A stretch of 64,000 nucleotides of DNA from Eukaryota sp. GEM-RC1 (taxonomy: Eukaryota). The notes under the pieces were generated by a model. That model was not told the DNA's origin. It was given only the letters and a program-made list of their open reading frames with translations, and searched no databases. Shown in pieces: positions 10,442 through 52,102 of the stretch (position 1 is its first letter; the number at the start of each line of letters is the position of its first letter). The stretch lies in NCBI GenBank assembly GCA_040285855.1, contig JAUFOQ010000005.1, positions 868,001-932,000 of the forward strand, given 5' to 3'. The position numbers and the translations under genes were made by a program.

Positions 10442-11659
10442 AATAGTTGATACTGTGAATTTCTTTTCGGGTGCTTAACACCATTTTCGCTCCAGACTCC
10501 TAAAACGTTGTTCACTGTCATTCTTTCTCCTCCTGTGTCATCTGTTTCGATCTTGTTATGCCTTACGGTAACCTTCCTCAACCTCCTAGTTCAATTGCTG
10601 TCATGGAAAACTCGATTGGTTTGATTTGAATTCTTTGAGGTATCATACTTCTTTATATACACTTGTTCGTAGATTTCGCTATACGGTTGCTGTGATTTCC
10701 TATCACAAAAATAGACACTTCGACTCTCTGACCAGTTTCAGAAAGGTATCCGCCTCTTCTGATTCAATGTCAGCCAGATCCATAGACATAACAACTTCCT
10801 CAACAGGCACTTGGCTACTCTGAGCGGAACTCATCACACATATCATTCGTTCAGGTAGAAACGGTATCAACTCTTTTGGTTAACGAAAAGGATGTTACAT
10901 ATAGTTGTTTGGATTGAGGGATTCTCTTCAATTTGTCTTATTTTTTGTAGTTGTTGAAAAACTGTCAGAACGTGTGAACATGAATACCCATTCTTTAAGG
11001 GATTAAGATGAACATGATAGGATCTATACATAATAAGAAGTTTTTCAAAAATACAGTGTATTAAAACGTTGTAATATTCGATCGAAAAAATACATAATGA
11101 GCTCATTATTAATAACACTCTAGACAAATTGATTAACATAGAATCAAAGCGAACATTTACTATACACAACGCTGTCAACTTGATGATTGAGCAAAGAACG
11201 AATTCTTAAGTTGAATCTTATGAGATTCAATCCAAAGGGACTTCTTCGTCTGGATGGATTAGTTGTTGAAGGAGAAGCGAAGTTTGGATAGAATGTCTTC
11301 TCATTAGTAAGTGATTTCCTCATTGGAGAGCCCTAGGCAAAGACTTGAACATCACAAGGGGAAGCAGAGCTAAAGAAACTGTAAGGGAGATGCTAAGAAA
11401 CAAGAAGTGGGATGACTAGCAGGAAGTGGTGGGTGTATGGAAGGAATCTAGAAGGGAAGATGGCAATAGGATACCGAGAGCAAGTGATGTAGGACTAAGA
11501 GAGTCAGAGCATTGCAGATACATAGGATGAGAGGACCTAGGACTAGCAAATGACCGTGTAAGACAAGGCTTCAAATTATAAAGGTGTGACTATAACAGGG
11601 GTGGGAAACTCAATATGATGAAAGGAAAGTGATTATGGTTGACCGGAAACTTCGACACC

Positions 11660-13606
11660 ATGGCACAGCCACGTAAGTGTTTCACTCGGTCGTGTGCTCT
11701 GAACTCGTTTCTTATACCTTCAGCAGTTCACCAGATTCGGTCTGACATTCCTCATGTCACCGAAGTCTGCCATGAAGCTTCTTTGCTTCTTCATTCTTTC
11801 CTTGTCACTTTCCCTATAGCGGCCAGAGCTATTGCGGAACAGGATGTCTGGTATCTCTTTATGACCGTCATCAACAAAAGTAGCTTTCCTGCTCCTCAAA
11901 CTTCGAAAGGACAAAGGCTTTTGTTGAATGTTTTCTATGATGGTTTTCTTCCAGAGTCCCCTGCTTCTTTTGTTCCTCCTTTTACTTTGGAATACCAAAA
12001 CTTTTTAATTTTTGAGTGGAATTCTGATATACTCACTTATGGGTTACTCCTTCAGAATTTCTTCAACTCCTGGCTAGCCACACAGACCTTTTCTGTGGTG
12101 AATAGCCCTAATCTTTCGCAGTGGTTTACTTGCCGTTCTCGTCAGTTGGCAGCTAATGTTAAGTCTTCTCTGCCCAAAATATCCAGAGCTTGGATTAAAA
12201 ATTTTCTATATGCCCATTGTCGGGTCATTGAGACACCTCGTCAATTTTCTTCGCATCTTCTTTATCTCTTTTATAATCTTCCATTTAATGCTCCTTCTTT
12301 TGTTAATGTTTCCATTGACAATCAGTCTGAAAAAATCTTTTTACTTAACGCTGTCTACTTTATTTTCCATCTTTTCGATCGTTTTCCTGTCTCGGAAGGA
12401 CTTTTATCTTCTGCTGACCACATGAATGTTTCTCCTAAAGAAATTCGTGAATTGTTTATTTTTAACCTATCAATTGCACAAGTCTTAGAAACAAATTTAA
12501 CTAATTTTTCCCATTGTTGGAGACGGCTCCGACTGATCCCTCTAGCTTCTCACAAAGGGTCAAAACTGTTGGATGTACCTCCAAACATCTTCAGAAGCAA
12601 TGGAAGATTCCCTTCAGCTATAGGCACTAAGGCTAATCGATTTTTTATTTTGAACCAGAATTTGAAGAAAATTTTCAAAAATTGTCCACATGAAAAATTC
12701 AAAATGTGGAAGAAAAGTTATAAAAGAAACTACAGAAAGTTAGCTCTCAAATCAAATGGAAATGAGCTTTTGATCACATTTGAACGGACTGAGCCAACAT
12801 TGGAGAAAGAAGGAGAGCCGCCAAAAAAGAAAAAAAGGCGGACAAAACTTGAGATGCAGCAAGATCCTAAAGCCAACTGCATCAAATCCATCAATTTAAA
12901 AGGATCGAAGAAGCAGCCTCGCCGTCGCCCTCCAACTTCTCAGGAGATTATCCCTGAAGGCCCATTAGTGGGTGTGGATCTTGGTCAGTCACGTCTTTGT
13001 GGTTACTATTTGAATGAAGAAAACCACGGACTGATCAAGTGTCCTACAGGCCGCCAGTTTCGAACAAACCCTTCTCCTCTCAAAATGTCACCGAACCAAT
13101 ATTCCGTGCAAAATATTCACCTATATTTGAATCACTGGAATTTGGTAAGAAAACAGGTGTATAAAGAGAGTAACCGGTCGAAGTGGAAGTCGATTAAGTT
13201 CGACAATCGAAGACGCAGAGAACGACGTTTTCGTGAAGCTCTGAATACTTTTCAAGAGATTTCTGGTCATCCAGATGAACTGTATCTGGCTGTTGGCTCA
13301 GCAAACTTTCCTTCCCATTTCAGGAAAGTTAAAAGATATGGATCAGCTCGATGCTTTCGGAAATGGCTGAATCACCAAAAAGGAGTAAAGCACTTTCCCA
13401 CCAGTGAATTCAACACTAGCAAACTGTCAAGCTGCTGTATGTCACTAAACGAAGCAACCAGATGGTGGCAAATGAGAGTCTGTGCCAACTGCCATCAAGT
13501 ATATGACAGAGATGTTTCCGCTGCTAAAAATATTCAGACTAGGAAGAAAGCAGAGTTGTGGCCTGGAAGATATGTCTGTCCTGAGGTAATGTCGAGGAGA
13601 GTCTAA
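11660..13606 (+). CDS. Fanzor (Fanzor1-like) TnpB-derived RNA-guided endonuclease, 648 aa
   Basis: RuvC-I LVGVDLG (D440, codon 12977); LAVGSANF; RuvC-II SEFNTSK (E583, codon 13406) directly before a Zn ribbon (SSCC...CANC); RuvC-III YDRDVSAAKNI (D618, codon 13511). Arg-rich bridge-helix-like segment DNRRRRERRFRE and NLS-like PPKKKKRR. First ATG at 11660 in context CACCATGG; uninterrupted ORF. Confidence 0.9.
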   Translation: MAQPRKCFTRSCALNSFLIPSAVHQIRSDIPHVTEVCHEASLLLHSFLVTFPIAARAIAEQDVWYLFMTVINKSSFPAPQTSKGQRLLLNVFYDGFLPESPASFVPPFTLEYQNFLIFEWNSDILTYGLLLQNFFNSWLATQTFSVVNSPNLSQWFTCRSRQLAANVKSSLPKISRAWIKNFLYAHCRVIETPRQFSSHLLYLFYNLPFNAPSFVNVSIDNQSEKIFLLNAVYFIFHLFDRFPVSEGLLSSADHMNVSPKEIRELFIFNLSIAQVLETNLTNFSHCWRRLRLIPLASHKGSKLLDVPPNIFRSNGRFPSAIGTKANRFFILNQNLKKIFKNCPHEKFKMWKKSYKRNYRKLALKSNGNELLITFERTEPTLEKEGEPPKKKKRRTKLEMQQDPKANCIKSINLKGSKKQPRRRPPTSQEIIPEGPLVGVDLGQSRLCGYYLNEENHGLIKCPTGRQFRTNPSPLKMSPNQYSVQNIHLYLNHWNLVRKQVYKESNRSKWKSIKFDNRRRRERRFREALNTFQEISGHPDELYLAVGSANFPSHFRKVKRYGSARCFRKWLNHQKGVKHFPTSEFNTSKLSSCCMSLNEATRWWQMRVCANCHQVYDRDVSAAKNIQTRKKAELWPGRYVCPEVMSRRV

Positions 13607-13963
13607 TGGAGAGATAGGTAGAAATGATAAACAAAACCACTTTGAGACCGATCTGGGGAAGTATCTATCCCGGTAGATATGTTTGTCAGATCCATTTAGA
13701 TAGATTAAGTCTAAGAAACTTTGTTCTGTGTAATCAGTGTAAGCTGTGTAAGCAGTCGGTCTATCTAAGTGATGTAGCCCGTTGATGAAGATCATGATTG
13801 TCTTTGTCAGATGACGCTATATGTCTCTTACAGCCTGTGAAAACAGGAGTGAATTTCATAATTGGGAGTAAGCAGTTGTAATGAAATTCACAGTAGATAA
13901 TCGTAGTGTAAAGAGTAAAGTGTAAGGCCTAGGCTGAGGAACACACCCTTCTTAACCACCTTT
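13607..13963 (+). ncRNA. Putative Fanzor omegaRNA (scaffold; boundaries approximate)
   Basis: Four consecutive hairpins directly 3' of the Fanzor stop. 13650-13692: GATCTG/CAGATC enclosing GTATCTAT/GTAGATAT. 13693-13706 pairs with 13758-13771 (14 bp, 3 G-U). 13834-13847: CCTGT-GAAA-ACAGG. 13849-13859 pairs with 13881-13891 (perfect 11 bp). Confidence 0.65.
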
Positions 13964-14016
13964 TGTTTAATGTTCTATGATGCCTTCCGATACTAATTAA
14001 GTCAAAGAAGTTAGTA

Positions 14017-15018
14017 CAGTCTTCCCCCGGTTTATGTCCAATTCGGTTTATGTCCAAACTCGGTTTATGTCCAAACTCGGTTTATGTCCGAAATTTTCCT
14101 GTCCGACTTATGTCGATCGATCTTCTTCTCCGTGGATCGTTCATCGACCGATCTCTTTTCTATCGACATATGCAATAAACACGCTTACATTCTATAGTCT
14201 TTGACTTCACATTTGGAGCTCAACTCCAACCTTTCTTCTCTTCACACACTTTCCTCCAGAAGATGTTGTACAAAGAGTCTTCTGTGTTATTTAGACACAC
14301 TTTACACCAGATCACACCACAAATGTCTCACTTCCTTTCTTCTTTTGTTCTCGTCCTCTGTTTTGATGTATATAAGGGTAGGATTGGATGCAGACACAAT
14401 TTGATCTCAAATGGAATATTTTCTGCCGTGACCGGACTATGTCTTTAGTAGAGACGTTTTGCTGGAGGAGGAAGGCACCAAGAACATTAAATGAGCTCAT
14501 ATACCCTCTTAGGGGTTAGAATATCCTTCCTTTTGAACTCAACCACATGATCCTCCTCACCTTTGATGGATTTCGCTGGTATATTTCCGTTTTCATTCCT
14601 TCCACAGCTTTCTACACAACGTTCTCATCTGATTTCCGCTTTCAAATTCGTCCTTTTGGGGAAGATTTTGTCTTCTCCAAGCCTTCTCTTTTGTTATGAT
14701 GCTCCTTCAGTTATCTCAGATGTACTTGCTGTCTTGTGTTATCATAGCTAGATCTTCTTTGTTTGATATAACATCATGAATCATGTCAAATTTGTCAATG
14801 TGTCACTGCCTTATCTTTGAACCCCCTTCTCTCCCGTCTTACTGAGAACGGGAACCCAACAGTATCATCAGTAGAATGGCCCGCATTTTAGCTTTTATTT
14901 CTCATTACAATGAAGACCCATATATATCTGTTCACTCTGCACCGAATCAACCCTCGGTTTATGTCCAAATTCGGTTTATGTCCAGTCCAAGAGGTGGACA
15001 TAAACCGGGGGAAGACTG
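14017..15018. mobile_element. Non-autonomous Tc1/mariner-superfamily (pogo-like) element, 1002 bp
   Basis: Perfect 24-bp TIRs CAGTCTTCCCCCGGTTTATGTCCA (14017-14040 and 14995-15018) with TA on both sides (14015-16, 15019-20). Motif CGGTTTATGTCC reiterated at 14028, 14044, 14061, 14078, 14955 and 14972. No long ORF inside. Confidence 0.9.
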
Positions 15019-15223
15019 TAGATGAACATACAATGTTAGATAATAAAAAAACGGATTTATGTGTGGAGAAAAATACACAACAAGAGAACAACAAATAAAT
15101 ATGTTGGAAAATTGAAATTTATGTCAAAGCGTCTTATAGAATTGAGGACAAAATTAAAGAAACTGACGAAACGTTGACAACTTGCAGTACAACACTAAAA
15201 CCAGCAAGTTTCACTAATTCTAT

Positions 15224-32022: not shown

Positions 32023-35002
32023 TTAAACCTCTGAAACAGAATAAAACTGTGTCAGTGATGGATCATTCTTTAAAATAACAGATAAAGCCTTCTCTACAGC
32101 CAAATCAGCCTCGTCATCATCAGCATCACTCTTCAATAACAAATCCCGAACAACATTAAATGAATCTCTATAAATGATTTTACTCCAAGGTTGAGTAAGA
32201 AAACTCAAAAGATTAAAACTTCCTTCAGTAAATCTGTTCAATATTTGATTGAGATAGTTAGAGTTTAGACCAACCAGTTTAATAAAGTCAAAGAGAAGAA
32301 TATTTCTAAAGGATTCCGTGACTGAAGCAAATAAACCCACAATTTCATCATATGAATTGAAAATTATACAAATATTTCCAAATTCATTCTCAGTTTGAAT
32401 AGTTTTGCCAATCGGACAATCATTTTGGTAATAGTTGAAAGCAATTAGAACAGTCGTATCTGAATTATTGACTTCCAAATTGGAAAAGAAACCAGATAAT
32501 TGAAATTTTGAACATAATTCAGGGAGTTCCACGTCAACATTGGTATGTGGTAAAGAAACAGAAGCATCTAACGACAGACCATCATTTTTGATTGAAGGAT
32601 CATAACAAGCCAGTAACACGTCAGCTAGGTACTTCCCTAAAATTTTTGGTTCAAAATTGTCAAAATCAAATGAATTTTTAATATCTAACTGTGCAAAAGT
32701 AGACAAGCTTGAGGGTGGACCAATGGAGAATATCACAGCATCATTAGTATGTAAACGTTGGTCCACTAGAAGTTTTCCCTCTCTCAAAACAACATCCATA
32801 ACATTTCCAAAATTCTGTAAATAATCCATATTTAATTTGGGTTGATCGAAAATCCAACAGGCAGTGTGATAATTATTATCCAAACTAGAAAAGAAATCAA
32901 GAGATACAAACTCGACTTTAACATTGACTTGTTCAAATACTTCCAAGAAATGTTGGACACATCGATGTAGAAGAGTTGCTGAAACTGTTGATTGTTTGGA
33001 ATTATTCAAATTTTCGCTAAGTTTTAAACTTATTGAACTTGGAGAAACTCCTTTTGTAAAAGTAAGTTTACAGTAGCAAATCCGGTCAGTAATGGAGAAA
33101 TCTCTGGCCAAACTCCAGTTTCATTGGTTTCTTTGATTGCAATCAAAAATGATTGTTCATCATCTGGTTCTTCTAAACAAAGATCAATAGAATCACCAAG
33201 AGCACCACTATCATAGAGATTTTGAAAAACATTAGAATTAGTTTGACTTTCGTCTAAAGAAGGGGTTAAAATCAAACAATCAAAATTGACTGCCATCACA
33301 TCATTCGTGTCAAAAACTTCGACGTTAATGACCCTAGTGACGGTGTTGATACTAACAACAGAGCCAGGAATGACTGCAATGCTGTTGTAAGTCAATCGAT
33401 CCAGCTCATAAAGATCAAAAATCAACGATTTAGGAAACTGTGAATAAGGATCAGTCATCATTGAGATACAATCACTAGCCCTCGTTTTGATTGAAGAATC
33501 AATAATCGTAATTGATTGAAAACTACACGAGTTATCAACAATCAACGAGTGAATAACAGACAAAGTCCATGAATTAAGTCCAATAAAGCATAACGATACC
33601 GGATAAAGCTTGGGTAAGTCTAACGACAAATGATGAGAGAAGAATCTAATGGGGGAGAGTAATAGCTCATTATTGGAGTCGTTTAATTCAAATACATCAG
33701 AACTTAAATGGGTTGGAGGAATCGACTGGAAATATTTTAATAATTGAGAATTTGAAATAGGATCGTGATTCGAATCCTTTGAGAAGATCAATTTTGATCC
33801 GGTTTGAATTTGGATAAAATTTAAAATACATGGAATTACTGAATGAAGTGACTGTGGGCACTTGAATTCCTCAATTTCTACAGCAGTACCGATTTTGTTA
33901 CAAATATTAAAATATTGTTCAATAAATCGAGTTTCTTTCAAAACTCTAGGCATGCACTCATTAATTCTAAAAAGACGATACATTTCATTAACACAAGTCT
34001 CATCTTTTCACTAAAGAAAACATGAATACCCGTACAATCACTTTCAATCTCATTATTAGTAACAGTCAACCAATCAAAAATGATTGCATTCCTATCAATG
34101 AACTGCAAACGTGACTCAGGCAACAGTACGACTAAATCACAGAGAGAATGACCAGGAATTGAGATTAAGTTAGTATCAGAAGTAAAGAACTCGTCTAAAA
34201 TCAGTACATCAATAGGTAACTTAGAGAATACTTCTTGAATTAATTCACCAGCCATAACTGAGTACTCCGAACTAACAAGGGAAAAGGCCTTTAAAAGACC
34301 AAACCGAGTGTTTTGAGATGTGTCGGAAGAGCTGTTTTCACGGTATAGAACAACGTCTAATTCGGAATTATTTAAATTTGATAAAAGACAATCGGAGAAA
34401 ACACACGCAGAAATAAAAGCAACGATTTCAGAGTTATGAAAGACACAGAAACAAAGGTTATTAACTGGGTCTCTTTCAGAATCCTCAATCATTGCCACCA
34501 GGTCATCAGAGGGAGGGAGAATGGAAGTGGAGGAAGAAAAGGAAGCGATGAGATCATCGTATAGTTCTAGGTAGATTGGCGAGAGCATGAGGTCATCGTT
34601 GAAAAGGACGTAGTTGCGAGTAAAGAAAGAGAGAGAAGAAGAGAGTGGTTCAAGGGGGATTGATGGAAGAGGAGAAGAGGTAAGGACGTGGGTGATGGTA
34701 GGATGAGATGTGAAGAAGTGGTGGAGGATGGAGGTGAGACAGGTAGCAGATTGAGTGGATGAAAGATGAAGAGTGATGCAACGGGTGGATGAAACTGAAG
34801 GAGAATGTTCTGATAACAAGGAAAACTGATCACGTGAAGGTAGATAGAAAGAGCAGAAGCCAATTAGGGTGTTATCATCATCGAAAGCAACTAAGCAAAC
34901 AACTGAGTCGAGAACTTCATTGAACAATTCATAAGATGAGAGATGTGGAAGAAGTGCAGTAACTTGGTTCACATCTGAAGCGGTGATAGGATGAACGGAC
35001 AT
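32023..35002 (-). CDS. CFAP61: CFAP61-like cilia- and flagella-associated protein (two frameshifts)
   Basis: Three overlapping ORFs. N-terminal acetyltransferase-like region, a pyridine-nucleotide-oxidoreductase-like middle (SITIID, GSVVSINTVTRVINV, FDCLILT), and C-terminal LVGLNSNYLNQILNRFTEG...LLSFLTQPWSKIIYRDSF resembling the CFAP61 C-terminus. Confidence 0.7.
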
Positions 35003-35046
35003 TTGAATGAGATTGCCACAATCTAGAATCTGTTTTTGGTGTAAAA

Positions 35047-36044
35047 CCTAGTTCAGATATACACGGGTTTGATTTTTCATATACTGTATATACAAAATAT
35101 ACATATACATTTGTATATACTGTGATATACACTAAGTAACAATTGTATATACAGTTCATACACACATACATCAACAAATACATGTATATAAAATACTTTA
35201 TTGAACAAGAAGTCTAATCATCAGCCACAAAGCGTTTAACAGTCATTTTTGTAATCTTTCTTTTTTTTACACCTGCATCTTTGGATACAGATGCCATAAT
35301 CACGTCCCCCTCCATTTCCGAGCAGAAACCAGAGTCCATCATCATAACTTATCGTAATTTCTTCACTTTCATCTTCAACATTGATTTTTGGCACCTCTAC
35401 AAACACTTCGTTTAAGTCAAATAAATATTTACAAGAATTGAGGTTAATAAGTGACATATCATTTGGAAATCGATTAACAAATTCAAAAATGAAATTTTTT
35501 CCGCTCCCTAAAGAAAGCAGGTTTACAAAGCATTGACGATTTGGTAAAATCAATACCACCAAAATGAGCAGAAGTAAACAAGTGACTTCTAAGTAACGTT
35601 AATCAAGTTCTAACAATGAAGCAAAAAAATTAATCCTCAACTCGTTAAAAGATCTAGAGAAATTCAGAGCGATTGAAGGAGCTGTAGATCTAAAAAGAGG
35701 TGTGATTTTTCCGGAGTATCAAATTTGTAAAATATAAAACTTAATATGTTGTTCTATGTCATATGAAAAAATTTAGTTGAGTTCTGGGGGTATTTAACCC
35801 GTCCCATTTCAATTGGTCATTACTTATTTGCTTAATGACCTGACTCTTTGTCCTTGACAATGGACTAACGCAGTCTGATCATCCATTAGACCCTGACAAG
35901 TTCACAAACCCTTGTGTAACATGTAACTGAACTCATATACAAATATACACCGTTAACCAACATCTTGGGCATTTTTATATACACTGTATATACAGATTTT
36001 CTGTATATACAGTATATACAGTGTATATGTACATCTGAACTATG
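35047..36044. mobile_element. Non-autonomous hAT element (998 bp)
   Basis: 17-bp TIRs with 2 mismatches (left CCTAGTTCAGATATACA; right, read inward, CATAGTTCAGATGTACA). Perfect 8-bp TSD GTGTAAAA (35039-46, 36045-52). GTATATAC subterminal repeats at both ends. Confidence 0.88.
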
Positions 36045-49899: not shown

Positions 49900-52102
49900 C
49901 AGGGACTGTCAAAAATATATTGCAATATATTGCAGGGCCAAAAAGATTTGCAATACAGTATTGCAATACTGCAATATATTGCAATAATTGGAAGCAATAT
50001 AAATAATGTTGAGTAAATTATTTATTGTACTCATTCCATCAATAACTCATAACATCATCACTAGGCATCATCCAAGTTGACTAGTTTCTGATTAACCATC
50101 TTGCGAACCAAACTAATGTCCCAAAACTCTCTGTTCACAGAAAGAAATAGTTGATTGGCCAGTCTTCGATCAGATAAGTTGTGTCGTGACAACCCTTGCG
50201 CCATTCGAGCTTTACTGAACAGTCGTTCTACAACATTTGAAGTTGCTGGGATGAACTTTAAATTGCAGTAACCTACTGTTTCACCTCTCATTCGAGTAAA
50301 GACATCTTGAACAGAGGAAACAGGTCCAGGTCGTTCGTCAATTTCTTCCTCTCCATCATCATCACTATCACTACTCACATTATTTACGATTACTTCACCA
50401 TCTAAAGATGACGACAATCGAGATTGACCAGCAACTGTTTCAATTTCATGTTCTTTAAAACACTTAACCATAATTTCTTCCTCATCTGAAAGACTCAACC
50501 CTTCATTCTTCAAGATTTTCAGCACTGCTGATTCGAAGATGAATTGATTGGGTGGACATCGTGGAGCATCTACTGCGGGATACACAAGCTGATTTTTCAT
50601 CTCTTGATTTGCATTATATTGGCAAAATACGAGCATTGCTGATTTAAACAAATGCTCAGCATCCAATAAATTAGAATTCTCCTTTTGCAATTGAAGACTG
50701 ACAAATTGTAATTCCTTCATATGATACATTAATTGAATAATCCTCGTTTCTTCAGCGAAACTTGGAAGTAAATCAATCAGTTCATCGTCTTCAACCTCAT
50801 TGAGCATCTGACCGATGGGTAATTTAAGTTCTAAGAATCTTTTTAACATGTCATGAGTTGAATACCATCTAGTAACATTACGTTGCTTTGGAGCTAACTT
50901 TGTGTAATTACGGAAAATGGTAATTCGCTTCGGTTCTCTGAGAAGTTTCATCACACTGTTTACCCGATCCAATAAAGCATCCAAAGGCCGAATGAAGGCA
51001 GTCACAGCCAACTGAAATCTGTGTGAGGCACAACCTACGAATCCACAGTTTAGAAGTTTTGACAGTGCCTTCATTGTAGAACAATTATCAGCGACAATAA
51101 ATATAATATTTTTTCTTTCTTTGCTATATTCCAGAAGCAGTTCATCTACTATTCTGGCAATGTCTTCAGCTCCAAACAATACACTGTTAACTGATCGCCC
51201 TTCTTCTGCACTGAATGGTACAAATTTCAATAAAACAGGTTTTTCTAGTTGTTCACATGAACCAAAAATGCCCAAGAATTGTAGTTTTGAATTTGGGTGT
51301 TGCCAAGAGTCTATCACTAACCCAAAACAGGATCCAAGTTTTACAGAGATTTCAGCCACTAATACGGCTTTCATGTTGTCAAAGCATTGCATAAAAGTGT
51401 TGTACGCAATCGGTTTTAACTTTGTGTATTCAAGAGTACAGTCATTTTGAACAAATGAAAACGGCAAACCGTCAGTAATGACCCAGTCAAGCCAAGAGAA
51501 ATATCTACGACACTTTTCGGATGTGTAAACTCTGTCTATGGGCAAGTTTTGCTCCTTTTGGCGAAGCAGGGTCCATGTTTCAATCATGTAATCCGTGTGC
51601 TGCCCAGGAACGTGAGATGCGAGATTAGTCCAACCCGAGTTGGGCTGCTTTGTTCGCAGAACTCCGCAGACACATTTCCAAAGTTGTGCTGTTTCAGGAT
51701 TTTTGATCTTAGAGTTTTGAAAGAATTCCACTGATTGAGTTGAGTCCCGGGAGATAGGAGTAAAGTAGGCTTTCGCCATCTGTTCTCGAGTGGGACGAGA
51801 AGGAAGAGCCATGTAAGATGATGTGACGAATGATATCAGATTTACATTTGTTTGTCAGATCTAGACAGATGCTACATTGTACTAGTAGTAAGGACTTCAA
51901 ATTGTACAGCAACAAAAAAACCACTATACTGTGTTAAATTCCTTTCAAGTAACAGAGAAAAAATTGGTTTAAAAATATTGTTCAAAATTGAAATTATTGC
52001 AATATATTGCAATACAAAATGAGGCTGCAATACAGTATTGCAATACACAATACACAGTATTGCAATTATTGCAAAAGTGCAATATATTTTTGACAGTCCC
52101 TG
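49900..52102 (-). mobile_element. Complete autonomous hAT transposon (2203 bp)
   Basis: Perfect 25-bp TIRs CAGGGACTGTCAAAAATATATTGCA (49900-49924, 52078-52102), perfect 8-bp TSD ATTGAAGC (49892-99, 52103-10), TATTGCAATA subterminal palindromes, intact transposase. Confidence 0.96.
50061..51812 (-). CDS. hAT-family DDE transposase, 583 aa
   Basis: BED-like WKCVC...TNLASHVPGQH, LPFSFV, LVIDSW, VADNCS, CASH (CxxH), TRWYS, ATSNVVERLFSKA. Confidence 0.95.
   Translation of the reverse strand: MALPSRPTREQMAKAYFTPISRDSTQSVEFFQNSKIKNPETAQLWKCVCGVLRTKQPNSGWTNLASHVPGQHTDYMIETWTLLRQKEQNLPIDRVYTSEKCRRYFSWLDWVITDGLPFSFVQNDCTLEYTKLKPIAYNTFMQCFDNMKAVLVAEISVKLGSCFGLVIDSWQHPNSKLQFLGIFGSCEQLEKPVLLKFVPFSAEEGRSVNSVLFGAEDIARIVDELLLEYSKERKNIIFIVADNCSTMKALSKLLNCGFVGCASHRFQLAVTAFIRPLDALLDRVNSVMKLLREPKRITIFRNYTKLAPKQRNVTRWYSTHDMLKRFLELKLPIGQMLNEVEDDELIDLLPSFAEETRIIQLMYHMKELQFVSLQLQKENSNLLDAEHLFKSAMLVFCQYNANQEMKNQLVYPAVDAPRCPPNQFIFESAVLKILKNEGLSLSDEEEIMVKCFKEHEIETVAGQSRLSSSLDGEVIVNNVSSDSDDDGEEEIDERPGPVSSVQDVFTRMRGETVGYCNLKFIPATSNVVERLFSKARMAQGLSRHNLSDRRLANQLFLSVNREFWDISLVRKMVNQKLVNLDDA

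Follow-up and report, generated by a model that had tools for sequence, protein, structure and literature searches.

The 64-kb stretch of DNA from Eukaryota sp. GEM-RC1 analyzed here (the window) probably holds an intact Fanzor1-lineage gene, P0001, in a TA-flanked element without a recognisable transposase, a system for omega-RNA-guided cutting of empty sites. The argument starts from direct observations: an open frame with a D-E-D triad and a RuvC fold, inverted ends with TA, sense-strand folding potential, copy number and two versions of one protein cassette. The features are as follows, in window coordinates.

10447..10452, plus strand: left flank ending in TA, with a predicted TAM of about GATA (role by analogy with Spu-1) and the left copy of the TA duplication at 10451-10452
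10453..10486, plus strand: left imperfect terminal inverted repeat (34 bp), from complementarity to the right end and shuffles
10487..11659, no strand: left internal region with no recognisable gene, from ORFs, tblastn and the EXO1 profile
11660..13606, plus strand: Fanzor1-lineage ORF P0001, 648 aa, a single uninterrupted frame
12590..12787, plus strand: variable WED cassette, residues 311-376, with two versions among copies, ending at SNG/TNG, the counterpart of the Fanzor1 TDG
12818..12847, plus strand: basic stretch PPKKKKRRTK, residues 387-396, a likely nuclear localisation signal, from sequence
12977..12979, plus strand: RuvC-I D440, within DLG, from sequence and subfamily alignment
13406..13408, plus strand: RuvC-II E583, at the Fanzor "alternative" position just ahead of the zinc finger, from sequence and alignment
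13427..13492, plus strand: zinc-finger/TNB segment SSCC...CANC, with C592, C593, C608 and C611 and Ser at the first canonical Cys
13511..13513, plus strand: RuvC-III D618, from sequence and alignment
13607..13895, plus strand: candidate omega-RNA scaffold with five predicted hairpins, the 289 nt after the stop codon, from folding z-scores
13860..13893, plus strand: right imperfect terminal inverted repeat, followed by TA at 13894-13895, from complementarity and shuffles
13896..13915, plus strand: right flank, predicted guide of about 15-20 nt (role by analogy with the Fanzors in the accessible parts of PMC10432273 and PMC10711439)
14015..15020, no strand: neighbouring non-coding TA-flanked element, 119 bp downstream, with 26-bp perfect inverted ends and 17-bp subterminal repeats

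An earlier sequence-only reading of this DNA had described an unbroken 648-aa ORF with D440, E583 and D618, and all of these were confirmed in one frame, 11660-13606 on the plus strand. The motifs GVDLG (D440), LAVGSANF and SEFNTSK (E583) start at residues 438, 543 and 582, followed by SSCC at 590, CANC at 608 and DRDVSAAKNI (D618) at 616. The D-E-D triad is accompanied by a C-terminal zinc finger whose four cysteines are arranged as SSCC...CANC, and Cas12f1-like_TNB (PF07282) matched residues 574-625 with an E-value of 1.4e-6, past the Pfam cut-off. Between E583 and the first-Cys position there are six residues, the spacing of the alternative glutamate, which the accessible text of PMC10711439 places about six residues before the zinc finger in Fanzors. 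The same text describes DPG at RuvC-I as occurring "near exclusively" in Fanzors and D-hydrophobic-G as the usual RuvC-I motif of TnpBs. The RuvC-I motif of P0001 is DLG and the DPG fingerprint is absent, so we filed P0001 as a Fanzor1-lineage variant and not as a textbook member. DLG is common to the listed copies of two species. Because the sister subfamilies that group with P0001 (94/97) carry DPG or DPN at this position, we read DLG as a presumably derived change. Retention of the triad across subfamilies merely 25-57% identical points to long selection on catalysis. Of the earlier proposal that P0001 is a candidate active nuclease, the intact triad stands, while DLG in place of DPG counts against it; catalytic activity appears somewhat more probable than its absence. 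The stretch PPKKKKRRTK presumably resembles a classical nuclear localisation signal.

The genes around P0001 are eukaryotic, as had been claimed, and include LRR genes (Pfam) and a CFAP61-domain gene. The latter (window 32026-35047, minus strand) is broken into three overlapping frames, and at its one clearly readable frameshift junction, near 33950, an A-run appears to lack one base, possibly through an assembly error. Since broken neighbours may be assembly errors, they say little about the activity of P0001, and the earlier argument that frameshifted neighbours set off an active gene needs correction. The Fanzor element lies 11 bp from the first ATG (10441) of an LRR gene, and P0005, a GEM-RC1 gene model, joins a Fanzor fragment (P0001 residues 349-422) to an LRR gene; this proximity may point to a preference for such targets, or LRR genes may just be abundant.

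To place P0001 among its relatives, 1.84 billion representatives were searched at E-values up to 0.001. This gave 29 hits, 25 at 5e-10 or better and four at 1.4e-4 to 9e-4. All strong hits that were looked up are named Eukaryota sp. GEM-RC1, TZLM1-RC or TZLM3-RCL at NCBI, and by the names of the looked-up hits nothing outside these three skoliomonad genomes was better than 1.4e-4. The accessible text of PMC11316075 gives GEM-RC and TZLM3-RCL as strain names of skoliomonad metamonads and describes their isolation from alkaline hypersaline lakes. The 90% cluster of P0001 has 11 members, ten of them named GEM-RC1, and only P0001 and P0041 are full length. Of the TZLM1-RC cluster, which comprises 82 proteins, those listed share about 56-60% identity with P0001, and TZLM3-RCL contributes three subfamilies that are 25-37% identical, one of them with a length of 592 aa in seven of ten members. 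In all three genomes the relatives sit on megabase eukaryotic contigs. From the cluster counts, NCBI names and strain names, the P0001 family is a multi-copy mobile family in three skoliomonad genomes, and the host is likely a skoliomonad, an anaerobic protist. P0002 and P0036 end at the same A-run position, and some truncated copies such as these may be assembly errors. In TZLM3-RCL, the P0028/P0068 subfamily forms a third family of Fanzor1-like proteins in skoliomonads, more distant than the others; it carries DPN, and its seven 592-aa copies suggest recent spread.

We assign P0001 to the Fanzor1 lineage, as a divergent member, with high confidence. Solved structures were searched with a profile of 21 sequences, 17 from skoliomonads and four from distant relatives. 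The top match was SpuFz1 (E 1.3e-19, profile positions 226-573 of 576), followed by GtFz1 (1.8e-10), mimivirus Fanzor2 (2.8e-10) and ISDra2 TnpB (1.1e-6), and this ranking, drawn from sequence profiles, appears to favour Fanzor1. The skoliomonad-only profile reached no solved Fanzor in the PDB by sequence, and SpuFz1 surfaced once the distant relatives were added; in single-sequence and skoliomonad-only PDB searches, the zinc-finger end of P0001 was matched and nothing more. The same skoliomonad-only profile matched 26 mostly giant-virus proteins over residues 360-647 (prob. 99.3%, E 8.9e-21), and this set in turn matches PpFz1, SpuFz1 and GtFz1 at 6e-68 to 4e-48. With SpuFz1 as the best solved match and a best non-skoliomonad hit no better than 1.4e-4, the description of the protein as Fanzor1-like and divergent agrees with our results.

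The statement that the N-terminal ~380 aa match nothing, by contrast, has to be revised. This half aligns in order, though weakly, with the Fanzor1 REC/WED; taken alone in hhalign it gave a weak match (prob. 0.5%, E 0.12), with a score of 21.5, whereas none of 20 column shuffles scored above 17.3. The Atlas model of P0001 matched a cluster of ~700-aa TNB/DUF8286 proteins with a TM of 0.61 over 497 residues spanning 2-648. By its alignment, the N-terminal half is, as we read it, a divergent REC/WED half, and the 648 aa of P0001 together with the whole-length Atlas match correspond to the size of Fanzor1 (600-700 aa, enlarged REC/WED). In the structure comparison, the RuvC lobe of our own low-confidence model matched SpuFz1 with a Z of 11.5 (rmsd 3.9, 174 residues); this model, from a 21-row alignment, was poor (pLDDT 50.6, pTM 0.36), and Cas12 RuvC lobes scored as high against it as Fanzors. 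At this pLDDT, the model shows helices at 483-503 and 517-535, which may or may not correspond to the kinked REC2 helix pair of Fanzor1. The counterpart of TDG is SNG in P0001 and TNG in most relatives, aligned to the viral and SpuFz1 TDG. In a 29-row RuvC tree, which has long branches and was built without a named reference Fanzor1, GEM-RC1 and TZLM1-RC join the DPG-bearing TZLM3-RCL subfamilies at 94/97, just below the starred bar, and all skoliomonad rows stand together at 90/89, separate from the giant-virus Fanzor1-like proteins. Viral scans queried with P0001, P0032 and P0030 gave no match, and a viral scan with alignment A2 gave 43 loci; no relative was among the pattern hits of two metagenome scans, which numbered 43 and 586.

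Two versions of a WED cassette were found among the copies. Between P0001 and P0041, the 66 positions of residues 311-376 show 25 differences, whereas the 310 positions preceding them show 9 and the 272 following them show 2 (11/582 elsewhere). Out of 12 other copies aligned, all named GEM-RC1, P0038, P0002, P0246 and P0042 share the window's version, P0041, P0034, P0035 and P0037 carry the alternative, and four do not cover residues 311-376; the TZLM1-RC copies compared have a single version. By a hand count on the alignment, anchored at D383, SpuFz1 R291 maps to about residue 320 of P0001, where the second cassette version has a two-residue deletion. In accessible parts of the literature, R291 is a TAM contact of SpuFz1 (PMC10432273), the WED part is described as variable and TAM-reading (PMC11423790), and a WED helix is placed against the terminal stem of the RNA (PMC10711439). 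By analogy, the cassette likely reads the target motif, and we infer from the aligned copies an exchange of modules that would give two TAMs or two RNA ends.

The simplest reading of the element ends, and very likely the correct one, is an element of 3,441 bp (3.44 kb) at 10453-13893 with a TA duplication. Positions 10451-10486 and 13860-13895 are complementary at 27 of 36 positions including TA, and the outer 13 are perfect. We compared TA-anchored 36-mers, taken from 3 kb on the upstream side and 400 nt on the downstream side, with 500 dinucleotide shuffles; 27/36 was reached in none of the 500 and a 13-base run in one. Real control placements in the window also reach 27/36 in 12 of 199 cases, most of them among inverted paralogous genes. 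The ends, which begin CTGTG, are drawn from one copy, and a GA duplication with ends two bases longer also fits the letters; no second copy of the end motifs was found in the 64-kb window. The longest stop-to-stop frame wholly within the 1.2-kb left arm is 112 aa, and neither tblastn with 77 proteins nor the EXO1 profile on six frames found a match in 10487-11659. No transposase gene was recognisable in 10453-13893, and no TnpA or serine recombinase was seen in the element, whose left arm has no frame above 112 aa. In this one copy, TA and terminal inverted repeats are as in Tc1/mariner-type non-autonomous elements. As in Fanzor1, the gene lies in a likely eukaryotic transposon, and the candidate scaffold takes in the repeat and the duplication.

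Other mobile or repeated sequences were seen in the window. The element at 14015-15020, likely a Tc1/pogo-type MITE, was considered as the right end of the Fanzor element. This was rejected because it possesses a complete pair of ends, which differ from those of the Fanzor element. At about 49900-52100 lies an apparently intact transposon, which we take to be hAT-like from its anatomy and motifs, with 15-bp inverted ends, an 8-bp duplication and a 597-aa ORF (50064-51854, minus strand) that gave no Pfam hit at E 0.01. The stretch 35410-35685 (minus strand) matches an insert in TZLM1-RC P0077 (residues 76-167, E 3e-12) and is possibly a retroelement remnant. About ten dispersed paralogues of an unannotated membrane-protein-like gene, on both strands and with 70-86% DNA identity, occupy 17700-43800; Pfam gave no hit for the two that were searched.

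An omega-RNA most likely comes from the region behind the stop codon. The fold from the stop codon to the right end had a z-score of -4.3, with 0 of 100 shuffles reaching it, and in the comparison of strands the sense strand gave -4.9 and the antisense -1.8, with G-U in 16 of 98 pairs. None of 64 equal-length control stretches lay at or below -4 (lowest -3.1). The last hairpin, 13849-13891, pairs the right terminal repeat with an internal copy, an arrangement also reported for Fanzor1 RNAs, and the last 90 nt alone gave -4.3. In a 150-nt sliding scan the 3' region does not stand out (best -2.1), as the signal needs whole hairpins. Rfam gave two chance-level hits, none within the candidate RNA, and a 7-bp first stem like that of solved Fz1 RNAs was not identified in the scaffold, whose length is uncertain, from about 80 to 290 nt. 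For Fanzor1, the accessible text of PMC10711439 places the repeat and the duplication inside the RNA scaffold. The right flank, as predicted guide, stays single-stranded in the 309-nt fold and becomes paired in shorter folds, and no second target with three or fewer mismatches was found in the window. For Spu-1, the accessible text of PMC10432273 gives CATA as the TAM, with CA upstream of the left repeat.

Past this anatomy, every step of the mechanism is modelled on characterised Fanzors. P0001 would load an RNA made behind its stop codon and running 15-20 nt into the right flank, which would act as the guide. Its target would be the left-flank TAM (ending in TA) followed by the right-flank sequence, that is, the pre-insertion site, and the Fanzor would cut there. 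Homologous recombination repair from the occupied chromosome or chromatid would then restore or copy the element. New insertions would be made in trans by a TA-targeting DDE transposase encoded elsewhere, and the two WED cassettes would read different TAMs or different RNA ends.

Three other explanations were weighed against omega-RNA-guided cutting by P0001 within a TA-flanked element. P0001 might bind RNA and DNA and cut poorly or not at all, as a decaying copy or an RNA-guided binder. DLG instead of DPG, the shifted zinc cysteine and the full length of just two of the 11 members of its 90% cluster would fit such a protein; yet the three acidic residues are intact, the RuvC half differs from that of P0041 at only 2 of 272 positions, and the shared A-run stop of P0002 and P0036 means that some truncations may be assembly errors. 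DLG itself, present in the listed copies of two species, appears old and fixed, and D-hydrophobic-G is usual in TnpBs. This explanation is unlikely. A bacterial TnpB, present through contamination or recent transfer, is already largely refuted and highly improbable: the DLG motif and the TNB domain are shared with TnpB, whereas the alternative glutamate, the 648-aa length, the NLS-like basic stretch, the eukaryotic neighbours, the relatives on megabase eukaryotic contigs of three genomes and the two metagenome scans without a relative all speak against it.

The remaining explanation keeps an active Fanzor in an element that does not move by DDE cut-and-paste: the element would descend from an EXO1-Fanzor unit that cuts, resects and copies, and the window copy would have lost the exonuclease. 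Two sister subfamilies with an in-frame EXO1-like domain and an element without a detected transposase lend it some weight. It is nevertheless improbable, as a TA duplication beside inverted ends normally marks a DDE element (accessible text of PMC3627910), an EXO1 remnant was sought in 10453-11659 and not found, and the distant 592-aa subfamily lacks EXO1.

The EXO1-Fanzor fusion itself is known from gene models. In TZLM3-RCL, P0062 (1323 aa) has XPG_N and XPG_I ahead of a full Fanzor with an intact triad, and over residues 99-380 it matches human EXO1 (PDB 3qea; E 3e-38), with conserved acidic motifs of the active site. Two further models, P0060 and P0057, show the same in-frame junction (three of nine cluster members), and P0058 consists of just the EXO1 part. 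A second subfamily includes P0024, which aligns across the junction to P0062 residues 340-834 at 29%, and its near copy P0220. Two sister subfamilies therefore carry an in-frame EXO1-like domain, and since the more distant 592-aa subfamily is without EXO1, a single lineage may have gained the fusion. No TNB domain was found among the best 120 of 134 EXO1 hits. Directly before the EXO1 start, the gene models P0062, P0060 and P0058 have a 2A-like motif, RDLTxDGDVEPNPG, followed by M where the skipping consensus, D(V/I)ExNPG-P, has P. The motif may serve to release a peptide encoded ahead of the EXO1-Fanzor protein, or may be a relic.

In openly searchable full text we found no description of Fanzors in metamonads, including Trichomonas, of a Fanzor1 with EXO1, or of a Fanzor with XPG/FEN1. 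Metamonad names and XPG are absent from the supplements of three Fanzor surveys (one picture-only file lay outside the search), and "Metamonada" was not found in the accessible parts of PMC10530073 and PMC10711439. P0001 itself belongs to a known system, of which it is a divergent variant; the WED cassette with its two versions and the EXO1-fused sister protein, as they appear in the sequences, would raise its family above a routine new Fanzor member. Speculatively, this Fanzor lineage might change the motif it targets through exchange of a 66-residue WED cassette among copies that are nearly identical elsewhere, and its sister might be a single-chain EXO1-Fanzor, an RNA-guided homing machine in which an RNA-programmed cut would be followed by end resection and homologous repair would be forced. 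If true, this would offer a model from nature for editors whose TAM can be swapped and which steer repair. The use of Fanzors, compact programmable nucleases of eukaryotes, is limited by TAM range, and with P0001 and P0041 differing almost only in the likely TAM-reading segment, the question of TAM specificity becomes directly testable. The locus yields concrete predictions for RNA, guide and TAM, the origin of the hosts in alkaline hypersaline lakes makes salt or pH tolerance of interest, and a multi-copy EXO1-Fanzor protein bears on how Fanzors help their elements spread.

Compared with known systems, P0001 shares RuvC and the zinc finger with Fanzor2 (ApmFz2, PDB 9b0l) and the IS200/605 TnpB ISDra2, and the alternative glutamate is common to Fanzor2; unlike them, P0001 is larger and has a candidate TDG-type motif (SNG), and the matches are weaker and shorter. 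An IS607 Fanzor2 or bacterial TnpB would have a TnpA partner and fewer than about 520 aa, whereas P0001 has 648 aa and the left-arm frames reach at most 112 aa. Human exonuclease 1 (PDB 3qea) is a relevant comparison for the sister protein P0062 only, at residues 99-380; P0062 differs from it in being fused to a Fanzor, in multi-copy gene models, and the window element has no counterpart of it. Giant-virus Fanzor1-like proteins (IMG/VR L008 and others; Atlas clusters with PF26935 and PF07282) share the RuvC half and the TDG region (prob. 99%) and match the predicted structure of P0001 over its whole length (TM 0.61), but they are only ~15-17% identical and form a separate clade in the tree.

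According to the accessible text of PMC3627910, PUl-4 and ESv-1 are likewise Fanzor1-only elements with inverted ends and a TA duplication, and P0001 has the spacing of the motif D-X(125-275)-TS-XX-zinc finger-X(5-50)-RD given there; the window element differs in ends that start CTGTG and in having no confirmed Mariner partner that shares them. SpuFz1, from Spu-1 of Spizellomyces punctatus (PDB 8gkh), is only ~16% identical to P0001 in the aligned RuvC lobe and has DPN where P0001 has DLG, and the SSCC zinc finger and the two WED cassettes are on the P0001 side. The window element also differs from Spu-1 in its imperfect ends, its 1.2-kb non-coding left arm and a stop-to-end distance of 287 nt against ~80 nt. 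In what is accessible of PMC10432273, Spu-1 nevertheless resembles it in a single ~640-aa ORF, ~30-nt inverted ends, the lack of an internal transposase, a TA junction, many copies, a D-E(alt)-D triad and an RNA that runs through the right end, where the window element has its candidate RNA.
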